DNA from: Octopus vulgaris
Taxonomy: Eukaryota
Direction of reading: 5' to 3'
Assembly: GCA_951406725.2 (NCBI GenBank)
Contig: OX597827.1
Coordinates: 7,564,001 to 7,628,000, forward strand
DNA length: 64,000 nt
How positions within the stretch are numbered: the stretch's first letter is position 1; each line of letters starts with the position of its first letter. Shown piece by piece: positions 33,965 to 52,138 of the stretch. The position numbers and the translations under genes are program-made. Under the pieces are notes generated by a model. The model was not told the DNA's origin and did no database searches. It saw only the letters and a list, made by a program, of their open reading frames with translations.

Positions 33965-34495
33965 CTCTCTTTACTCTTTTACTCTTTTACTTGTTTCAGT
34001 CATTTGACTGCGGCCATGCTGGAGCACCACCTTTAGTCGAGCAAATCGATCCGGGGACTTATTCTTTGTAAGCCCAGTACTTATTCTATCGGTCTCTTTT
34101 GCCGAACCGAACCGCTAAGTGACGGGGACGTAAACACACCAGCATTGGTTGTCAAGTGATGTTTGGGGAGAACAAACACAGACACACAAACATACACGCA
34201 CATATACATACATACATATATACATATATACGACGGGCTTCTTTCAGTTTCCGTCTACCAAATCCACTCACAAGGCATTAGTCGGCCCGGGGCTATAGCA
34301 GGAGACACTTGCCCAAGATGCCACGCAGTGGGACTGAACCCGCAACCATGTGGTTGGTTAGCAAGCTACTTACCACACAGCCACTCCTGCGCCTATAAAT
34401 ACAATACATATATATCCATATATACGACGGGCTTCTTTCAGTTTCCGTCTACCAAATCCACTCACAAGGCTTTGGTCGGCCCGAGGCTATAGTAG
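33965..34495 (-). mobile_element. SINE family A plus adjacent partial second copy
   Basis: Full copy 33965-34395, then repeated body segment 34420-34495. Confidence 0.9.
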
Positions 34496-41564: not shown

Positions 41565-41571
41565 ACTTACA
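41565..41571 (-). other. Candidate splice donor in the 3' UTR (AT|GTAAGT)
   Basis: Minus strand reads aaaaatacat|gtaagtaaaa, a consensus intronic donor hexamer about 72 nt after the stop codon. Confidence 0.4.
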
Positions 41572-41642
41572 TGTATTTTTCTTTTCAGAAAAAATTCCTT
41601 CCAGAAATGATTTGTCTCTTGCTGAAGTTGGTAAGATTATAA

Positions 41643-41902
41643 TTAAGAATAATTATTCGGTATTGGCGGAAGTGGTTTTGATAAGAATGTATTGCCACCA
41701 GTTGATTTTGTTGATGGTTGCTTCTGAATTTGAGTTGTTTGTCTTGGGTTACTGCTAATACTACTACTATTGCTGTTACCAATTTTAAAAGACTTTAAGT
41801 CGACTGTGTTATTGTAGTTGGTCGGCTGATGAGGATTGCTTAAAAAGAAATTTCTGGAATCTGCATGATTTGAAGACCTTGTGTTGTGGTCATTTCTAAA
41901 AC
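41643..41902 (-). CDS. PCDH: Stop-containing coding exon of the same protocadherin-like tail
   Basis: Acceptor ttaatttatttatttcag|GT (exon starts 41902). The phase-1 join T|GT gives an open frame CFRNDHNTRSSNHADSRNFFLSNPHQPTNYNNTVDLKSFKIGNSNSSSISSNPRQTTQIQKQPSTKSTGGNTFLSKPLPPIPNNYS, then TAA at 41645-41643. This frame is absent from the ORF track and was found by hand translation. Confidence 0.75.
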
Positions 41903-42226
41903 CTGAAATAAATAAATTAATATGTGTGAATAGATAAATAAAATGATATAAAAAAAATAGAAGAGTAACAAAATTTTAAAAAGCAGCACGAAATATTTTT
42001 CTTGAATATTTAAAATTTTTTAAAGAAATCATATTTGAAGAATATATAAGACATAGCTGTGTGGTTAAAAAAGGTTGCTTTGCAACCATGTGGCTTTGGG
42101 TTCAGTCCCACAACCTGGTACCTTGGGTAGTAAGTGTCTTTTACTGTAGCTTTGGGCCAACCAATGCCTAGTGAATGAATTTGGTAGATGGAAACTCGTT
42201 GGAAGACCTTTGTGAATGTGTGTGTG

Positions 42227-42271
<45 letters not shown>

Positions 42272-42540
42272 ATGTGTGTGTTTGTGTGTATGCATGTGCG
42301 TGTGTGTGTGTGCATGTGTGTGTGTGTGTGTGTGTGTGTGCATGTGCGCATGTGTGTATGTGTGTGTGTGAGTATGTGAGTATGTGTGCATGTGCCTGTT
42401 TTTGTCCCCATTTCCACTGCTTGACAACCAGGGCTGTTTGTATCTCCATAATTTGACAGTCCATAAAGTTTAACAGGATAAGAACCAAACTTTAGAAATA
42501 AGTACTAAGAGCAATTTGTTCAACTAAGAAACCCTTCAAG

Positions 42541-42908
42541 GGTCAACTCTTCCAGAGGTAAAGGTGATGCCTTAGATAGAAATGATTACAGAGATATCAA
42601 ATTGTTGGATCAGGTGATGAAAGTTACAGAGAGGGTCATAGCCCAACAAATTAGGGAGAAAGTTAGTCTAGATGAGATGCAGTTTGGTTTTGTGCCAGAG
42701 AGAAGTACCACTGATGCTATTTTTCTGGTAAGGCAGCTGCAGAAGAAGTGTCTACCCAAAGACAAACCTCTGTACTTGGCTTTTGTTGACATGTAGAATG
42801 CCTTTGACAGGGTCCCTGATCCCTTAACTGGTGGTTAAATGCAGAAACTAGGGATACATGAGTGGTTGGTGAGAGCTGTACATATCATGCATGTATAGGG
42901 ATGTTGTC
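42541..42908 (+). mobile_element. RTE-clade LINE RT fragment
   Basis: GKGDALDRNDYRDIKLLDQVMKVTERVI...EMQFGFVPERSTTDAIFLVRQLQ...LYLAFVDM*NAFDRVP. Confidence 0.85.
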
Positions 42909-43004
42909 CCTACTTACCACACAGCCACTACCTATGCGTATATATATATATATATATACTAGAGAGAGAAAGAGAGAAATAGTGTGTGTGTGTATATATG
43001 TATG

Positions 43005-43056
<52 letters not shown>

Positions 43057-43064
43057 TGTATATA

Positions 43065-43111
<47 letters not shown>

Positions 43112-43611
43112 GTATGTATGTATATGTATATATTTCTAGTCTGTCTTCACAGTTCTGAAGTTGAACCACACCAGCACCTCTTCCAATTAAACAAAACATA
43201 TGTCTAACACCAGAAGAGTTGCATTGTCTACACAGACGAGTGTTATTCAACTTCAGTGTAGATAGGCCAACAAATACTACCTCAGCCATCACGTCTATAC
43301 ATCTGTCAATATTTAGAGTAAATTAAATGAACTATTATGAAAGAGCCAATTTTACCATCTAAAGACACACAAAACAGTTAAATTTACTTTTCATTTATCA
43401 GTTGAGATGTCAGATTTGAACAAATATTTCAATAAATAAATAAAAATTCAATTTGATATTTTTTCTGTGTGTTTTTAGATGAGAGGCTAAAATGACTCTT
43501 TCACCATGTAATTGTTTCAGTTTTTTCCATAGTCGTAGATTAAGTCACTTTCCAGACAAGCACAGTACCAGCATTAGAATTATAATAATTTTTATGTCTA
43601 TTTTCTGTATC

Positions 43612-44062
43612 AGGACAATTACCCCATTAGGACAATTATCCCACCAGGACAATTACCTCCTATAGGACAATTTCACCCAATGACAACTACCTCCTAGGAC
43701 AATTACCTATTTCTTTATTACCCACAAGGGGCTAAACACAGAGGGGACAAACAAGGACAGACATAGGTATTAAGTCGATTACATCGACCCCAGTGCGTAA
43801 CTGGTACTTAATTTATTGACCCCGAAAGGATGAAAAGCAAAGTCGACCTCGGCAGAATTTGAACTCACAACGTAATGCAGACGAAATACCGCTAAGCATT
43901 TCGCCCAGCGTGCTAACATTTCTGCCAGCTTGACAATTACCCCCTCTTGGTTAATTACCCTCTCTCCAATATATTAAGAAGTTTTAAATCATCATTTGTT
44001 GTCTTCTGAGCCAATTGTCATTGGTGAGGGTGATTATTGTCTATAGTGGGCAAATGTCCTAG
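43612..44062. mobile_element. MITE-like element with ggacaattaccc subterminal repeats, interrupted by a family B SINE (43707-43930, minus)
   Basis: About 6 copies of ggacaattac/cc on the left; inverted-like attgtc and atgtcct on the right. Confidence 0.55.
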
Positions 44063-45323
44063 ACTCCTATTTTCTCAGGTTTGCAAGTTTTGGATAGATG
44101 TTCTCCAACACTGGTTTGTCATTTATTGGATTTTTTAAAATCTCTTTTATGAAATTTAGCATCAGGAGATCAGCTTTCACCATTTCACTTCTGCCCATGT
44201 TTTCATCAATTTTCCTCTACCGGTTCCTTCCACATATATTTTTTGGCCATTTTATACCCTCTATCATTATTAATACAAGTTTATATTTAGTATAACTGAC
44301 ATAAATAAATTAAAACCATTTCTCTTTACAGCTTTCTACTTCTTCAAATACCCCCAAACAAATACGAAAAGCTACATGAATCAACATAATTTGGTTGATG
44401 CTGGATTAAGCTTATAATCTGGAGAAATGTTTTTACAGCTATGTCTGTAGAAAGTAGCATTCAATAATAAAAGAAATTTGAAAACTACATTTTGATAAAA
44501 ATATACTATAATCAGAATTTTTAAGAATTTTCTAGACAGAGGAGACATAAATAATTGCTTTGTTTTAGTAAAATTAATGAACTAATTGATAAGCAGCTTT
44601 CATTTTAGTATACATGTATTATATATCTGTACCTATGCAACCATTTCTCAGACAAACTACAGCTGATAGAATATTTTTCTCTCTACTAATTTGTGCCATG
44701 TTGCTCAAGCAGACTAACTTTATAACTCTAGTTGCCCATGTTTACATCATTTTTTTTTCAACTTTCATTCATCCACTGTGCTTATATCTCTCACCACCAT
44801 GTAGTATTAGTGTTTGTATGGAATGATAAATACATGAAATATTTTATACAAAGAATCATTTAATACTCTCATTATGATTTCCATCACATGCTTTTTAGGA
44901 AACCTACTCCACTACAGCAAGACTGCTATGCCTAACAGTGGATTTTACTTGGTCACTTGACCTTCAATAGATAACAGCCAAATATCCCTCTTTTTATATC
45001 ATCTCTATCATCTTTAAAATGGTTATGCAAAAATATGGACTAGTGTCATGGTTGGTATGGTTTGAGCATTGGTCAATTCAATGAGGACATGCCAGGGGCT
45101 AAACAATGGCAATACCAAGAACAATAACATCACTTGATGATTTATTGTGAATGTTGATTGATATTGATTGAAAATTGCCAAATGTGAACAACTTTAATTA
45201 ATGTGGTAAAGTAAAAATAATTTTTTAATCTTTTGAAAATATAACCATAATAAGAACAAATGCTATAAATTAACGAGAATTACTCTAAGAACACACAAGG
45301 GAAAGAACTCTTGAAATTTTAGA

Positions 45324-45524
45324 TACTCTTTTACTTGTTTCAATCATTTGACTGCGGCCATGCTGGAGCACCACCTTTAGTCGAGCAAATCGACCCCGGG
45401 ACTTATTCTTTGTAAGCCCAGTACTTATTCTATCGGTCTCTTTTGCCGCACCGCTAGGTGATGGGGACGTAAACACACCAGCATTGGTTGTCAAGCAATG
45501 CTAGGGGGACAAACACACACACAT

Positions 45525-45575
<51 letters not shown>

Positions 45576-45741
45576 TACAACAGGCTTCTTTCAGTTTCCG
45601 TCTACCAAATCCACTCACAAGGCATTAGTCGGCCCGGGGCTATAGCAGAAGACACTTGCCCAAGATGCCATGCAGTGGGACTGAACCCAGAACCATGTGG
45701 TTGGTTAGCAAGCTACATACCACACAGCCACTCCTGTGCCT
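45324..45741 (-). mobile_element. SINE family A
   Basis: Full copy. Confidence 0.9.
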
Positions 45742-46309
45742 AAAAGTTGAACTAAAATTGACTGGAGAAATGCTGATTAAGAGGAGAAAGTCTGATCACT
45801 CATTGCTATGACAACAACTCCAAATATATTTTGGTTTTATCAAACCTTCTCAGTAAAAAAACCACTGAACAAAAAGAGGATTTAGTTTTTAGATTGAAAA
45901 CGATTCACTGATTTAGTGAGTTTAAATAATGACATAAATAATTTTTCTATGTGTACATATTGCATGGAAAACATATAGTTAAGTGCAGTTTGCAATACTT
46001 AATGTGGTGAGCTACAAATTAGTTCCAATTAATTAAAGCTGTATTGGAAAGAAAAGTCATTAATATTAATGAAAATTATTGCTTAAAAGAAGGGAGAAAC
46101 TGCAGGAATTTTAATTGATCGAAAATTGGTCAGCAGGTGGTAGAAGTCTGATGAAAATGTGACCAGAGTTATTATGATAGTTACCACAAAACATATTCAT
46201 CGATCAGTGTAAACTAAATTATTTTCTCATATATAAACTGATTTTTGCAATGGTGTATAGTAATATTCTTGCATAAAAGCAGAAACTTTGTTTACTGATC
46301 CATCAATTT

Positions 46310-46623
46310 ATATATTTGCCTGTTTGTTTGCCTGTCTGCCTGCCTGTCTGCTTGCCTGTCTGTCTGTTTCTCTGTCTGTCAGTCTATCTATGTATCTGTC
46401 TATGTATGTATGTATGTATCTATCTATCTATCTACCTGTCCGTCTGTCACTGTATCTGTCCATCTGTCACTGTATCTGTCTGTCTGTCTGCTTGTCTCTC
46501 TCTCTCTCCCTCTTTCTCTCTATCTACCTATCTATCTGTTTGTCTGTCTGTCACTGTCTGTCTATCTATCCATCCATCCATCCACCCATCTATCAATCGG
46601 TCCATCTGTCTGTCTGTCTGTCA

Positions 46624-46683
<60 letters not shown>

Positions 46684-46725
46684 CTATCTATCTCTCTCTA
46701 TCTATCTCTCTATCTATCCAGCCAT
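46310..46725. repeat. (TCTG)/(TCTA)n compound microsatellite
   Basis: Direct reading. Confidence 0.95.
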
Positions 46726-47108
46726 AGCTAGATAGATAGATAAGCATTTCTCTCTCTTTCTCTGTATGTGTATGTGAGCATATATGTGTGTGTGTGTGTG
46801 TGTGTCCGTCTGTCCATGTGAATATGTGTATGCATGTATGTTTGTATGTGTGTGTATGTGAGTCTATGTGTATGTGTGTGTACATATATTCATACATACA
46901 TACACACACACATACATACGTAAATATATTATAGAAGCATTTCCATTATTAGCCATTCTTCATTCATCAATATTGTTCTCTATACTCAGATGTTGCATTG
47001 GTCATCTCATCTCCTCTTTCATATCCCCAATGGACCTCCACACTATCTCCCTCATGCACTATACCTGCTTCTTTCTGTCTCTCTCCCATTCCTGCACCTT
47101 ACACAAAC

Positions 47109-47148
<40 letters not shown>

Positions 47149-47909
47149 TGTCCTCTCCCTGTCAGCCATATCATCATTACTATCTGTTACTAGCATCTCT
47201 GCACCTTCTCCAACCCGTGCTCCATGCTCCACTGGCCATCTTCCACCCTATTCCATCCATCACCTATTTTTATCCATCACCTCTTCCATCCATCACCTCT
47301 TCCATCCATCACCCCTTCCATTTACTCATCAGCCCTGCCCATTCTTTACAGATGTCACCTACACCCCATTTCTCTTATCTCTAACCCCCTCCACCATACA
47401 CTCTTGAAAGCCCCTTCCTACATACATTCCAAGCTTCTCTGTCCCCACTCAATACCGCTCACCTGATACAGAGAGGTGCTACCTGGACATGTAACCATCA
47501 CAATTTATCGTTTTGAAGAAACTACTTAGTTCATTGTCACTTTCCCCTAAATGTGAGGAGCCATGTGGCCCCTTACTCTACCCCAATTCTTTCTCCCAAA
47601 CCCTAACACCCACCGAGTATAAAGACTTTGCTTTTGCAGACTAGCAACCTGAATGGTAGCCTCACTGATGCCAGTGGCATGAAAAAAAGGTACCAAGTAC
47701 ACACTGTAAAGTGGTTGACATTAGGAAGGGCATCCAGCAGTAGAAACCCTGCCAAAGCAGTACCGAGAGCACAATGCAGTCCTTGAACCTATTAAATTCA
47801 TTAGATAGAGTTGAATTCATCTCAGCATGGAACATGGATGTCAGATGATGAAGTTGATGATGGTGACGACAATGATGATGATGACACATACATATACATA
47901 CATGTATGT

Positions 47910-47950
47910 ATAGATAGATAGGTAGATAGATAGATAGATAGATAGATAGG

Positions 47951-47994
<44 letters not shown>

Positions 47995-48130
47995 GAAATA
48001 GATAGATAGATAGATAGATAGGTAGGTAGATAAATAGATAGATAGATAGGTATATCGATAGATCGATAGATAGATAAATAGACAGACAGATAGATAGATA
48101 GATTGATAGATCAATAGATTGATCGATTGA

Positions 48131-48166
<36 letters not shown>

Positions 48167-48195
48167 CAGATAGATAGATATATAGATAGATAGAC

Positions 48196-48247
<52 letters not shown>

Positions 48248-48263
48248 TAATAGATAGATAGAT
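47910..48263. repeat. (GATA)n microsatellite
   Basis: Direct reading. Confidence 0.95.
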
Positions 48264-48944
48264 ACACATAACATGCACATGCATATATATATAGGTGTTC
48301 ATGTGTGTATTATGAATGTATGTATGTATGTTTGTTTGTATATGTGCATGAATGTATGTATTGCATGGATAAATGCATAAAACTTAAGTACACAGAAAAG
48401 CAACACAACAAGCCATCAGCTTTTAAAGAATAAGCAAACACTACACCATCTATTGAGTACTCTTACTCATTTTCATGCATGTATGCACACACATACACAC
48501 ACACACACACACATACATATTCATATACACACATATGTATGCATGTGTAAAGTGGGTCTTCACACACATGATGCAACAAGCAAAGAAGTTTTAATTAACG
48601 AAGATTAAATAAATTAGGAATTGATATGAATATTTAATGGTACTTTAGTCATTAGCTGGATGTAATCCCAATGATGAATTTAAATGTTGCATAAGTAGGA
48701 CCCAATAAAATAAATACTGGACAAAATACCAGGGCCAAAACTATTGACTTAATTCATAGAAGGGGGTACCCCAGCATGTTTGCAGTCCAATGACTGGAAA
48801 CAGTGAAAGACATGAAGAATACTGATATTTTGTTGCTTACAATGATAGGGGGGGGGGTCCAGTTGATCCAATCAACAGAACACCCTGCTTGTGAAATTAG
48901 CATGCAAGAGGCTGAGTACTCCTAAGACATGTATGTACCCTTAA

Positions 48945-49390
48945 CCCTTTCGTTACCGTATTTATTTTGAGATGCTCTGTGTTTCTTTCAATTATTTTAA
49001 ATATAACAAAGAATTTAGTAAAATAACTTAGCTATCATTAAGCTAGTATTAGGAATATAAATTGCAACTAAGGTTTGGTGGTATATTTTGATGCAAAACT
49101 TATGAAAACAAGACATTTGTACTACAGAGCCAAAGGAGGTTTTGGCCGGGTTAGTAACGAAAGGGTTAAGCCTTTCATTAACAACCCGGCTGAAACCGAC
49201 TCTGGCTCTGAGTACAAATGTCTTGTTTTCATAAGTTTTGAATTAAAATCTTCCACCAAACCTTAGTCACAATTTATGTTCCTAACACTAGCTTAATGAT
49301 AACTAAGTTATTTTACTAAATTCTTTGTTATATTTAATAGTAATTGAAAGAAACACAGAGCATCTCAAAATAAATACAGTAACGAAAGGG
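48945..49390. mobile_element. Inverted dimer of a 221-bp piggyBac-type MITE
   Basis: TTAA(48941) - ccctttcgttac...gtaacgaaaggg(49165) - TTAA - (49170) inverted copy ...gtaacgaaaggg(49390) - TTAA. It sits at the TTAA of a degenerate minus-strand copy of the family C body seen intact near 63830-63850. Confidence 0.9.
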
Positions 49391-49623
49391 TTAATGTAGT
49401 TCTCAGGGAGGTTCAGTACGATACAGAATGTGACAAGGCTGGCTCTTTGAAATACAGGTACTACTCATTTTTGTCAGCTGAGTTGACTGGAGCAATGTGA
49501 AATAAAGTGTCTTGCTCAAGGACACAATTCATCACTGGGTAACAACCTCATGACCTGATGGTCATACAGCAAATAACAAACAATCAAAGTTCCGTTTTGC
49601 TATAAGAGAATGTAACTAAACCA

Positions 49624-49852
49624 TACTCTTTATTCTTTTACTCTTTTACTTGTTTCAGTCATTTGACTGCGGCCATGCTGGAGCACCGCCTTTAATCGAG
49701 CAAATCGACCCCGGGATTTATTCTTTTTGTAAGCCCAGTACTTATTCTATTGGTCTCTTTTGCCGAACCGCTAAGTAACGGGGACATAAACACACCAGCA
49801 TCGGTTGTCAAGCAATGCTAGGGGGACAAACACACTCACACAAACACACACA

Positions 49853-49890
<38 letters not shown>

Positions 49891-50055
49891 TACGACAGGC
49901 TTCTTTCAGTTTCCGTCTACCAAATCCACTCACAAGGCTTTGGTCGGCCCGAGGCTATAGTAGAAGACACTTGCCCTAGGTGCCACGCAGTGGGACTGAA
50001 CCCGGAACCATGTGGTTGGTTAGCAAGCTACTTACCACACAGCCACTCCTGTGCC
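49624..50055 (-). mobile_element. SINE family A
   Basis: Full copy. Confidence 0.9.
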
Positions 50056-50154
50056 ATGTGTCTCTAGTTTTTGTAATTGCTGTGTATCATCATAAAGACA
50101 TCTCAACCGTGATTATTGAGTCACTTTAGAAGTATCAGAAATCTCCCTATCTAC

Positions 50155-50755
50155 TCTTTTTTTTTTACTCTTTTTACTTGTTTCAGTCATTTGACTGTGG
50201 CCATGCTGGAGCACCGCCTTTAGTCGAGCAAATCGACCCCAGGACTTATTCTTTGTAAGCCTAGTACTTATTCTATCAGTCTCTTTTGTTGAACTATTAA
50301 GTTACGGGATCGTTAACACACCAGTATCAAGCAATATTGAGGGGACAACCATAGACACACAAACACACATACATATATATACGATGGGCTTCTTTCAGTT
50401 TCTGTCTACCAAATCCACTCACAAGGCTTTGGTTGGCCCAAGGCTATAGTAGAAGACACTTGCCCAAGGTGTCACAGAGTGGGACTGAACCCGGAACCAT
50501 GTGGTTGGTAAGCAAGCTACATATTTGTTTATTGCCTACAAGGGGCTAAACATAGAGGTGACAAACAAAGACAGACAAAGGGATTAAGTCGATTACATCG
50601 ACCCTAGTTTTGTAACTGGTACTTAATTTATCGACCCCGAAAGGATGAAAGGCAAAGTCAACCTCGGTGGAATTTGAACTCAGAACATAACAGCAGACGA
50701 AATACTGCTAAGCATTTCGCCCGGTGTGCTAACGATTCTGCCAGCTTGCCGCCTT
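50155..50755 (-). mobile_element. SINE family A (50155-50520) with a family B SINE (50522-50755) inserted in its head
   Basis: Family A ...agcaagctac is interrupted by family B and resumes as taccacac near 50758. Confidence 0.8.
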
Positions 50756-51016
50756 ACTACCACACAATGCCATCTTTATTGTTTTAGTGTCCATGTTTGC
50801 AGGTGTTGAATGGAGCTTATTGAAGCAGATATTCCACTGCCAGATGCCCTTCCTGTCACCAACACTTACCTATTCCTAAGAAAGATAACATTTTTCCATG
50901 CTCATACATGCTTACACAGAATATTGGAAATGAATGACATTGCTTATATGACAGTGACACTCATTTACAACTATCATGCAATATCAAGGCAATGAGATAC
51001 AAGCATGCACACACAC

Positions 51017-51171
51017 GAGTGGCTGTGTGGTAAGTAGCTTGCTAACCAACCACATGGTTCCGGGTTCAGTCCCACTGCGTGGCATCTTGGGCAAGTGTCT
51101 TCTGCTATAGCCCAGGGCCGACCAATGCCTTGTGAGTGGATTTGGTAGACAGAAACTGAAAGAAGCCTGTC

Positions 51172-51229
<58 letters not shown>

Positions 51230-51435
51230 TTGTGTGTCTGTGTTTGTCCCCCTAGCATTGCTTGGGGTGTTTTACATCCCTGTAACTTAGTGGTTCGGCA
51301 AAAGAGACCGATAGAATAAGTACTGGGCTTACAAAGAATAAGTCCCGGGGTTGATTTGCTCGACTAAAGGCGGTGCTCCAGCATGGCCGCAGTCAAATGA
51401 CTGAAACAAGTAAAAGAGTAAAAGAGTAAAGAGTA
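51017..51435 (+). mobile_element. SINE family A
   Basis: Near full copy about 550 bp from the donor of the 151-nt exon. Confidence 0.9.
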
Positions 51436-51987
51436 TATATATAAACACTCATACACACACACACACGCACCACACACATACACACATGTACATATATGAA
51501 TATTACTGTTAATAATTTACAATGATTTCAGTTTTGACTGCTATCTTTAGCATGCTGATGCTACAAGTAGTACCCTTCATTATTAATACATACACACACA
51601 CACACTCACACACACACACATACACCCCCCCCCACACACACACGTATATATGTTAAATGTGTATGACAAACTTCTTTCACTTTCAATCTTCTAAATAGAC
51701 ACAGAAAGCTTTAGTTGGCCCAGGTCTACAATAGAAGATACTTGGCCAAAGTGCCACACACTGGGACTGAACCTGAAACCATGTGTTTGTGAAGCAAAAT
51801 TCTCATCCGCATAGTCACATGCGTGCTTGTATATGGTGGTAAAACATTAAAGCAAATTTGACTGCCATTTCTAGCAAATCTATTTAGTATGACTGTATAG
51901 ATAAAGACCACCACATTCACTTGCATTTGTAATTTTTTAATCATGCAGAACAATTAAATACATGACAGAAATAACATTTCCACATAC

Positions 51988-52138
51988 ATGGTAGTTCTTC
52001 ATAATATCCAGTATCTGCTTCACTGCCCCCATGTCCACTGTCTGTGAAAGAAGACATCGTTGACATTTCAGAGAAATGATCAGTTGCTGTAGCTAAATGT
52101 CCTTTTTTATTGTCTTTTCCATGACTTATTTCCGTCAC
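51988..52138 (-). CDS. PCDH: Internal coding exon of a protocadherin-like cytoplasmic tail (candidate constant exon)
   Basis: Acceptor ttttttctcccggtttcag|GTG (exon starts 52138); donor CCAT|gtatgt (intron starts 51987). 151 nt, phase 0 in, phase 1 out. Encodes [58 protein letters not shown] resembles the delta-protocadherin CM1 motif (DSGHGDS[ED]). Confidence 0.8.

Follow-up and report, generated by a model that had tools for sequence, protein, structure and literature searches.

What does the tail of an octopus protocadherin pass on to the inside of the cell? The question is raised by a 64,000-nucleotide stretch of Octopus vulgaris DNA (GenBank assembly GCA_951406725.2, contig OX597827.1, forward-strand positions 7,564,001 to 7,628,000; referred to as the window, with positions counted from its first letter), which holds on its minus strand the last two coding exons of a protocadherin gene, here called exon A and exon B. 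An initial annotation, made from the letters, had picked out two short motifs, YEEL and KPLPPIP, one per exon, and had proposed that they form a docking platform for Src or Fyn, convergent with the vertebrate constant region. YEEL and KPLPPIP are a spliced, strongly conserved motif pair, subfamily-wide in octopod protocadherins; the best single reading of the pair, at a probability of roughly 0.5, is that a phosphorylated YEELP and the class I PxxP site would dock a Src-family kinase. The features concerned are as follows.

51988..52138, minus strand: exon A, the penultimate coding exon; 151 nt, or 50 codons plus 1 nt; residues 795-843
52019..52042, minus strand: DSGHGGSE block in exon A, the third conserved island
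51989..52003, minus strand: YEELP motif at the end of exon A, a candidate SH2 ligand that also fits the YxxPhi pattern
41903..51987, minus strand: phase-1 GT-AG intron between exon A and exon B; 10,085 nt
41643..41902, minus strand: exon B, the last coding exon, with a Ser/Asn/Thr-rich linker, the PxxP motif and the stop
41658..41678, minus strand: KPLPPIP, a class I PxxP pattern, 11 residues from the C-terminus

Octopus vulgaris record CAI9732444.1 (P0006) contains the translations of both exons without a mismatch, is 929 aa long and has six cadherin repeats and a single transmembrane helix; XP_029644517.1 and XP_014774862.1 are records of the same gene. In P0004, Pfam detects five Cadherin domains plus one Cadherin_2, with a hydrophobic helix starting at about residue 690. 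This is the make-up of a protocadherin (6-7 cadherin repeats with one transmembrane helix and a tail unlike those of classical cadherins), and the earlier placing of the tail in such a protein stands. Exon A, with an AG acceptor and a GT donor, runs from phase 0 to phase 1, ends in ...DTGYYEELP and matches P0004 and P0006 at 100%, with assembled contigs bridging both of its ends. Exon B is identical to residues 845-929 of P0006, its C-terminal letters being ...LSKPLPPIPNNYS, in fuller form ...NTFLSKPLPPIPNNYS, followed by TAA at 41643. The letters of YEEL are 52003-51992 on the minus strand, its tyrosine is Tyr839, and the YEELP site lies about 125 residues from the membrane. Between YEEL and KPLPPIP are 76 residues, with a distance of 80 from Y to K, much as had been annotated. 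The linker had also been described as Ser/Asn/Thr-rich and disordered: its composition (45% of these three residues) bears out the former, and the latter is made plausible by composition, in that order-promoting residues make up a fraction of 0.18 there and 0.33 in the ectodomain.

Splicing was checked in 4 of the 24 listed runs, one per study from four studies, placed on exon A; these runs are assembled contigs, whose status as RNA is a guess and from which rare forms and variants are lost. In all four, contigs pass from the exon A donor into the letters of exon B (placed at 41871), and in the three runs that reach the other end of exon A the sequence upstream of it is identical; translated by hand, it gives the residues of P0004 immediately before exon A. 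Since exon A is joined to exon B in 4/4 runs, the junction is real, and a single first exon is seen. No in-phase hidden exon within the 10,085-nt intron passed the filter used.

The conservation of the tail was judged from a full-length search, of which the best 150 of 15,985 matches were used. Among these, 139 are long multi-repeat cadherins, and neither the YEEL nor the PxxP motif occurs in them; all 11 single-chain protocadherin clusters among the 150, with 47-53% ectodomain identity, form the paralog set. Three cluster representatives were swapped for longer or genome-derived members of their 90% clusters (P0167 for P0061, P0175 for P0088 and P0187 for P0099), and with the unswapped representatives the YEEL and PxxP counts given below each go from 5 to 4 of 11. 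P0155, also among the 11, seems to be a read-through of a first exon, in which neither motif could appear. When all 210 seven-residue windows of the tail were scored, without alignment, against the 11 clusters, the top score went to KPLPPIP (mean z 2.98), with GYYEELP next (2.90) and DSGHGGS in fourth place (2.50), and the 64 linker windows stayed at background (mean z -0.04, best 0.95). This was the test that the initial annotation had set itself, and both motifs come through it as conserved islands. Counted as patterns, YEEL is present in 5/11 paralog tails (shuffled mean 0.024), YE[ET]L in 6/11, [KR]PLPx[ILV]P in 5/11 (shuffled mean 0.002) and DSG[HRKN]G in 3/11, with 0/2000 shuffles as high in each case. 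The two consecutive Glu and the following Pro of YEELP are kept in most paralogs, and KPLPPIP has the class I SH3 pattern [RK]xxPxxP. The paralog tail exons as a whole are 23-40% identical to the query, the identity being limited to blocks of 5-8 residues.

Within the octopods, the records from O. sinensis and O. bimaculoides have a few residues different, and the Argonauta hians ortholog shows 84% ectodomain identity. For this gene, 11/11 motif residues are identical between Octopus and Argonauta, along with 53/76 in the linker; over four such gene pairs the figures are 43/44 for the motifs, 165/289 for the linker and 2186/2680 for the ectodomain, a count made partly circular by the tail profile, which supplied three of the four Argonauta partners. 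In an ectodomain tree of 20 rows, the base of which is unresolved, six deep branches include proteins that carry both motifs, and their spacing is 62-110 residues in 13 proteins. All named carriers of the motifs are octopods (Octopus, Argonauta). Searches with the tail by itself found it in just two clusters, P0004 and P0005, and a tail-profile search with 7992 candidates scored gave 10 matches, all from Octopus or Argonauta, and missed some of its own seeds. No squid or cuttlefish (decapodiform) record is named among the matches of these limited searches, and since the profile search was narrow enough to miss some of its own seeds, this is no evidence of absence.

Several of the paralog tails have features of their own. 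In that of P0144, DSGHGWSE is kept, IDEM stands where YEEL would be, and a new YEEI arises where the first exon meets the second. A WNLPxKNSF block precedes the PxxP motif in P0167, P0187, P0223 and P0141 and is degenerate in this gene; in two of those four tails FxSF fits the WIRS pattern, hydrophobic-x-T/S-F. As a conserved signal WIRS was discarded, with 2/11 tails against a shuffled mean of 2.6, and with the two matches in this gene absent from the paralogs. The P0087 cluster (XP_052828994.1) has a quite different tyrosine-bearing design, a tail of about nine repeats of SSSQFYFVLEPQNEW whose number varies among isoforms.

What, then, might the pair bind? In PMC4140816, the optimal Src-family SH2 sequence is printed as pYEEIP and the Src SH3 ligand as VSLARRPLPPLP, and FAK is described as activating Src via tandem SH3 and SH2 sites. 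YEELP follows pYEEIP in its Y-E-E-I/L pattern, in both Glu and in the Pro at +4, and FLSKPLPPIP fits the printed SH3 ligand (PMC4140816). Both Glu and the +4 Pro likely favour an SH2 ligand, a sorting signal needing neither, and a link from alpha-protocadherin to Fyn is restated in PMC6339937. From the gene structure, splicing, conservation and motif match observed here a course of events may be predicted, from phosphorylation, binding and partner to activation and the role of the isoforms. KPLPPIP would bind the SH3 domain of the kinase, weakly and unmodified; once phosphorylated by that kinase, the YEELP tyrosine would in turn engage the SH2 domain and so hold the kinase open where protocadherins cluster on contact. 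The linker, flexible and 62-110 residues long, would let the two contacts fall on one kinase or across neighbouring receptors, and splice forms lacking the PxxP site would be adhesive and weak in signalling.

A number of observations weigh against docking of a Src-family kinase, the case for which is one of pattern. The motif match behind the annotated docking platform holds up against pYEEIP and VSLARRPLPPLP; the Arg of the class I Src ligand does not, Lys being the basic residue in this gene and in 4/5 strict PxxP matches, and the Arg form occurring in 1/11 tails, which is not above chance (102/2000 shuffles). An Arg at that position contacts an aspartate of the SH3 domain. In FAK and p130Cas, also, the SH2 site follows the SH3 site by some 25-30 residues; the octopus motifs stand in the reverse order and 80 residues apart. 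The motifs can be uncoupled: cluster c4 keeps RPLPPIP and has CEKL instead of YEEL, cluster c2 keeps YEEL and has no PxxP, cluster c6 has one extra residue within its PxxP motif, and clusters c8-c11 have no PxxP match of the [KR]PLPx[ILV]P form. The circularity of the four-pair count, the octopod-only list of carriers and the equally good fit of YEEL to another pattern belong on the same side.

That other pattern is YxxPhi (Y-x-x-bulky hydrophobic in a cytosolic tail; PMC2133128), and in this main rival reading YEEL would be a sorting signal that AP-2 or AP-3 reads in its unphosphorylated form, with KPLPPIP binding an unrelated endocytic or actin-related SH3 protein and the tail mainly setting surface level and turnover. 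According to PMC2133128, Leu is preferred in YxxPhi, mu3A favours an acidic residue at the second X, and phosphotyrosine abolishes mu2 binding; the tails of vertebrate clustered protocadherins, which are largely intracellular, govern their trafficking (PMC3601302); and separate losses of the two motifs in c2 and c4 would suit such a division of labour. The X positions of a sorting signal are permissive, yet E-E and the next Pro are kept in most paralogs, YEEL is retained together with a class I PxxP in 5/11 clusters, and YEELP stands far out from the membrane, which together make sorting an unlikely explanation of the pair, though one to be taken seriously. The sorting and SH2 readings could also be one switch, with the unphosphorylated motif used for sorting and the phosphorylated one for SH2 binding. 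Docking of some other protein with SH2 and SH3 domains -- an adaptor such as Nck, Crk or Grb2, or a Tec, Abl or Fer kinase -- would agree with the Lys of the class I motif, with the PxIPxK form in c5, which resembles a Crk-type site, and with the wide overlap of SH2 and SH3 specificities in general. It is rather improbable, in that YEEL has neither the Pro found at +3 in Crk and Abl sites nor the Asn found at +2 in Grb2 ones. YEEL comes closest to the printed Src-family optimum (PMC4140816).

The conserved unit might instead be a longer block, EMSTxSSxxDSGHGxSE...YEELP, inherited as a module for serine phosphorylation or degradation in which the tyrosine is no separate SH2 site. The windows at 812-839 all outscore the linker, DSG-x-G-x-SE is common to zebrafish and oyster tails, DSGxxxS resembles the beta-TrCP degron, and a similar SSG[RH]GS block is carried by six long cadherins (nine rows of 17 matches), which we take to be Dachsous-like. 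Clusters c1, c3 and c5, however, keep YE[ET]L and lose the DSG block, and c8 keeps DSGHG and loses the tyrosine; these losses make the two separable, and the single long module a long shot. Octopus protocadherin arrays do undergo gene conversion, as reported in PMC9068888, and in principle the motifs might be neutral leftovers of duplication or conversion; identity confined to 5-8-residue blocks amid barely alignable exons, and motif identity that holds between Octopus and Argonauta, leave that idea with next to no credit. Src-family docking is thus preferred among these explanations.

The third island, DSGHGGSE, may correspond to CM1, the DSG acidic block of delta-protocadherins: its 8-residue core matches, and its acidic extension is short. 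A GHSDRCWMP/GHSDxCWMP block, which comes next in zebrafish and which we take to be CM2, is absent from all the tails compared. In the portions of PMC7339444, PMC9040349 and PMC6769022 available, CM1 and CM2 are named without printed sequences. DSGHGGSE is identical in 7/8 residues to DSGHGDSE of a zebrafish delta-protocadherin and in 7/8 to oyster DSGRGGSE, both from the supplement of PMC6339937. Given these two matches part of the tail looks inherited, not convergent, so that the convergence first proposed for the tail is only partly right and seems to fail for the DSG core. The block suggests that YEELP and PxxP are additions to a tail core that was inherited; eight matching residues are thin evidence for it, and the printed oyster alignment ends before the YEELP/PxxP region.

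The PxxP site is not present in every predicted transcript, as a further feature within exon B indicates.

41622..41779, minus strand: segment spliced out in database isoform P0007 (CAI9732443.1); 158 nt, GT-AG, inside exon B

Through this 158-nt removal, known from a database model, P0007 loses KPLPPIP. Database models in cluster c1 include records both with and without the PxxP exon, and in c2 the modelled tail stops just past YEELP. A strong donor, GTAAGT, lies at 41570 on the minus strand, 72 nt beyond the stop codon (again in a database model), and by the rule for nonsense-mediated decay the KPLPPIP form would qualify if it were also spliced at that donor. The YEEL tyrosine may vary too: the transcript-type c2 record QBA31128.1 (P0088) differs from the genome-derived CAI9732486.1 (P0175) at 1/852 residues, and this sole difference, at residue 843, turns the Tyr of YEEL into Cys and needs an A-to-G change. 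Editing is enriched in octopus protocadherins according to 10.1101/714394. Sister records of the QBA series, though, show 1 and 9 differences from their genomic counterparts that have other causes, and for QBA31128.1 an allele or assembly error has to be given the same odds as editing; at the tyrosine codons of the present gene no letter differences were seen in contigs of the 4 runs, from which rare variants drop out. One might go on to imagine, as a speculation with the odds well against it, that in this protocadherin subfamily an ancient delta-type tail bears a Src-activation module of two exons, its strength set per gene and per transcript by splicing that drops the SH3 site and by A-to-I editing that makes a cysteine of the SH2-site tyrosine. 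The ectodomain's recognition identity and the tail's signalling output would in that case be adjusted independently of each other, and without the constant-exon design of vertebrates.

As for the rest of the window, 12 proteins were tried and no other protocadherin exon was found in it. The presumed large first exon, encoding the ectodomain and transmembrane helix, lies outside; such an arrangement agrees with the junction that precedes exon A and with read-through models like P0011. A Pfam scan of both tail exons found no family, a solved-structure search gave nothing meaningful (best E 0.54), and matches in the Atlas, all <0.9 and to cadherin tails, are a lead only. A short interspersed repeat in many copies and long microsatellites run across the window (for example at 34160-34492 and 50974-51363), and exon B is the only long non-repeat reading frame in it.

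In the published record, as far as the available text of PMC6339937 goes, O. vulgaris has no CM1-CM3, intracellular partners are unexplored, and two analyses reported no vertebrate-like intracellular motif in cephalopod protocadherins. A full-text literature search returned no paper on these tail motifs, with Albertin 2015, Wang and Ragsdale 2017 and most of the PMC9068888 supplement, which may show them, outside its coverage. With the DSG block, the claim in print that octopus and vertebrate tails have nothing in common would lose some of its force. With three short conserved islands, named residues and candidate partners, the signalling question becomes one of peptide binding and phosphoproteomics. 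Src-type docking, if true, would give these nerve-cell adhesion genes a testable signalling route into the cell, and both independent protocadherin expansions would feed tyrosine-kinase signalling; were the tail to serve trafficking only, the result would be an ordinary one, yet still the first functional handle found on these tails.

The constant-region analogy drawn in the initial annotation has to be given up as far as gene architecture is concerned. Cephalopod protocadherins diversify by whole-gene duplication, without shared final exons (PMC9068888); taken with the one upstream sequence in 3/3 runs and the divergent tails that the paralogs carry as their own, this rejects a shared constant region in the vertebrate sense. 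The gene resembles the octopus clustered protocadherins described as full-gene duplicates in PMC9068888 and PMC6339937, with six cadherin repeats, the transmembrane helix and short tail exons, and presumably, like them, with repeats and helix together in a large first exon; the patterns in the available part of PMC6339937 are those of ectodomain, transmembrane region and PP1 only, and the three tail islands are not among them. The constant region of vertebrate alpha-protocadherin (CNR) is linked to Fyn (as cited in PMC6339937) and to Pyk2/FAK and, through WIRS, the WAVE complex (PMC7339444). Here too protocadherin tail exons have short motifs linked to tyrosine kinases, whereas the octopus tail is not shared among variable exons, gave no sequence match to it, and is not enriched in WIRS. 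The delta2-protocadherin tail (PMC7339444, PMC9040349 and PMC6769022) likewise has a DSGHG-x-SE block in its own downstream exon and comes in short and long isoforms; in the octopus the DSG block is followed, not by a GHSDRCWMP-like block, but by YEELP and PxxP in its place. Finally, flexible sequence in FAK (PMC4140816) carries a docking site for Src of the SH2 type and another of the class I SH3 type, and so it does in p130Cas; the octopus tail would place putative sites of these same two types on a transmembrane adhesion receptor, in the reverse order, 62-110 residues apart and with Lys for Arg.

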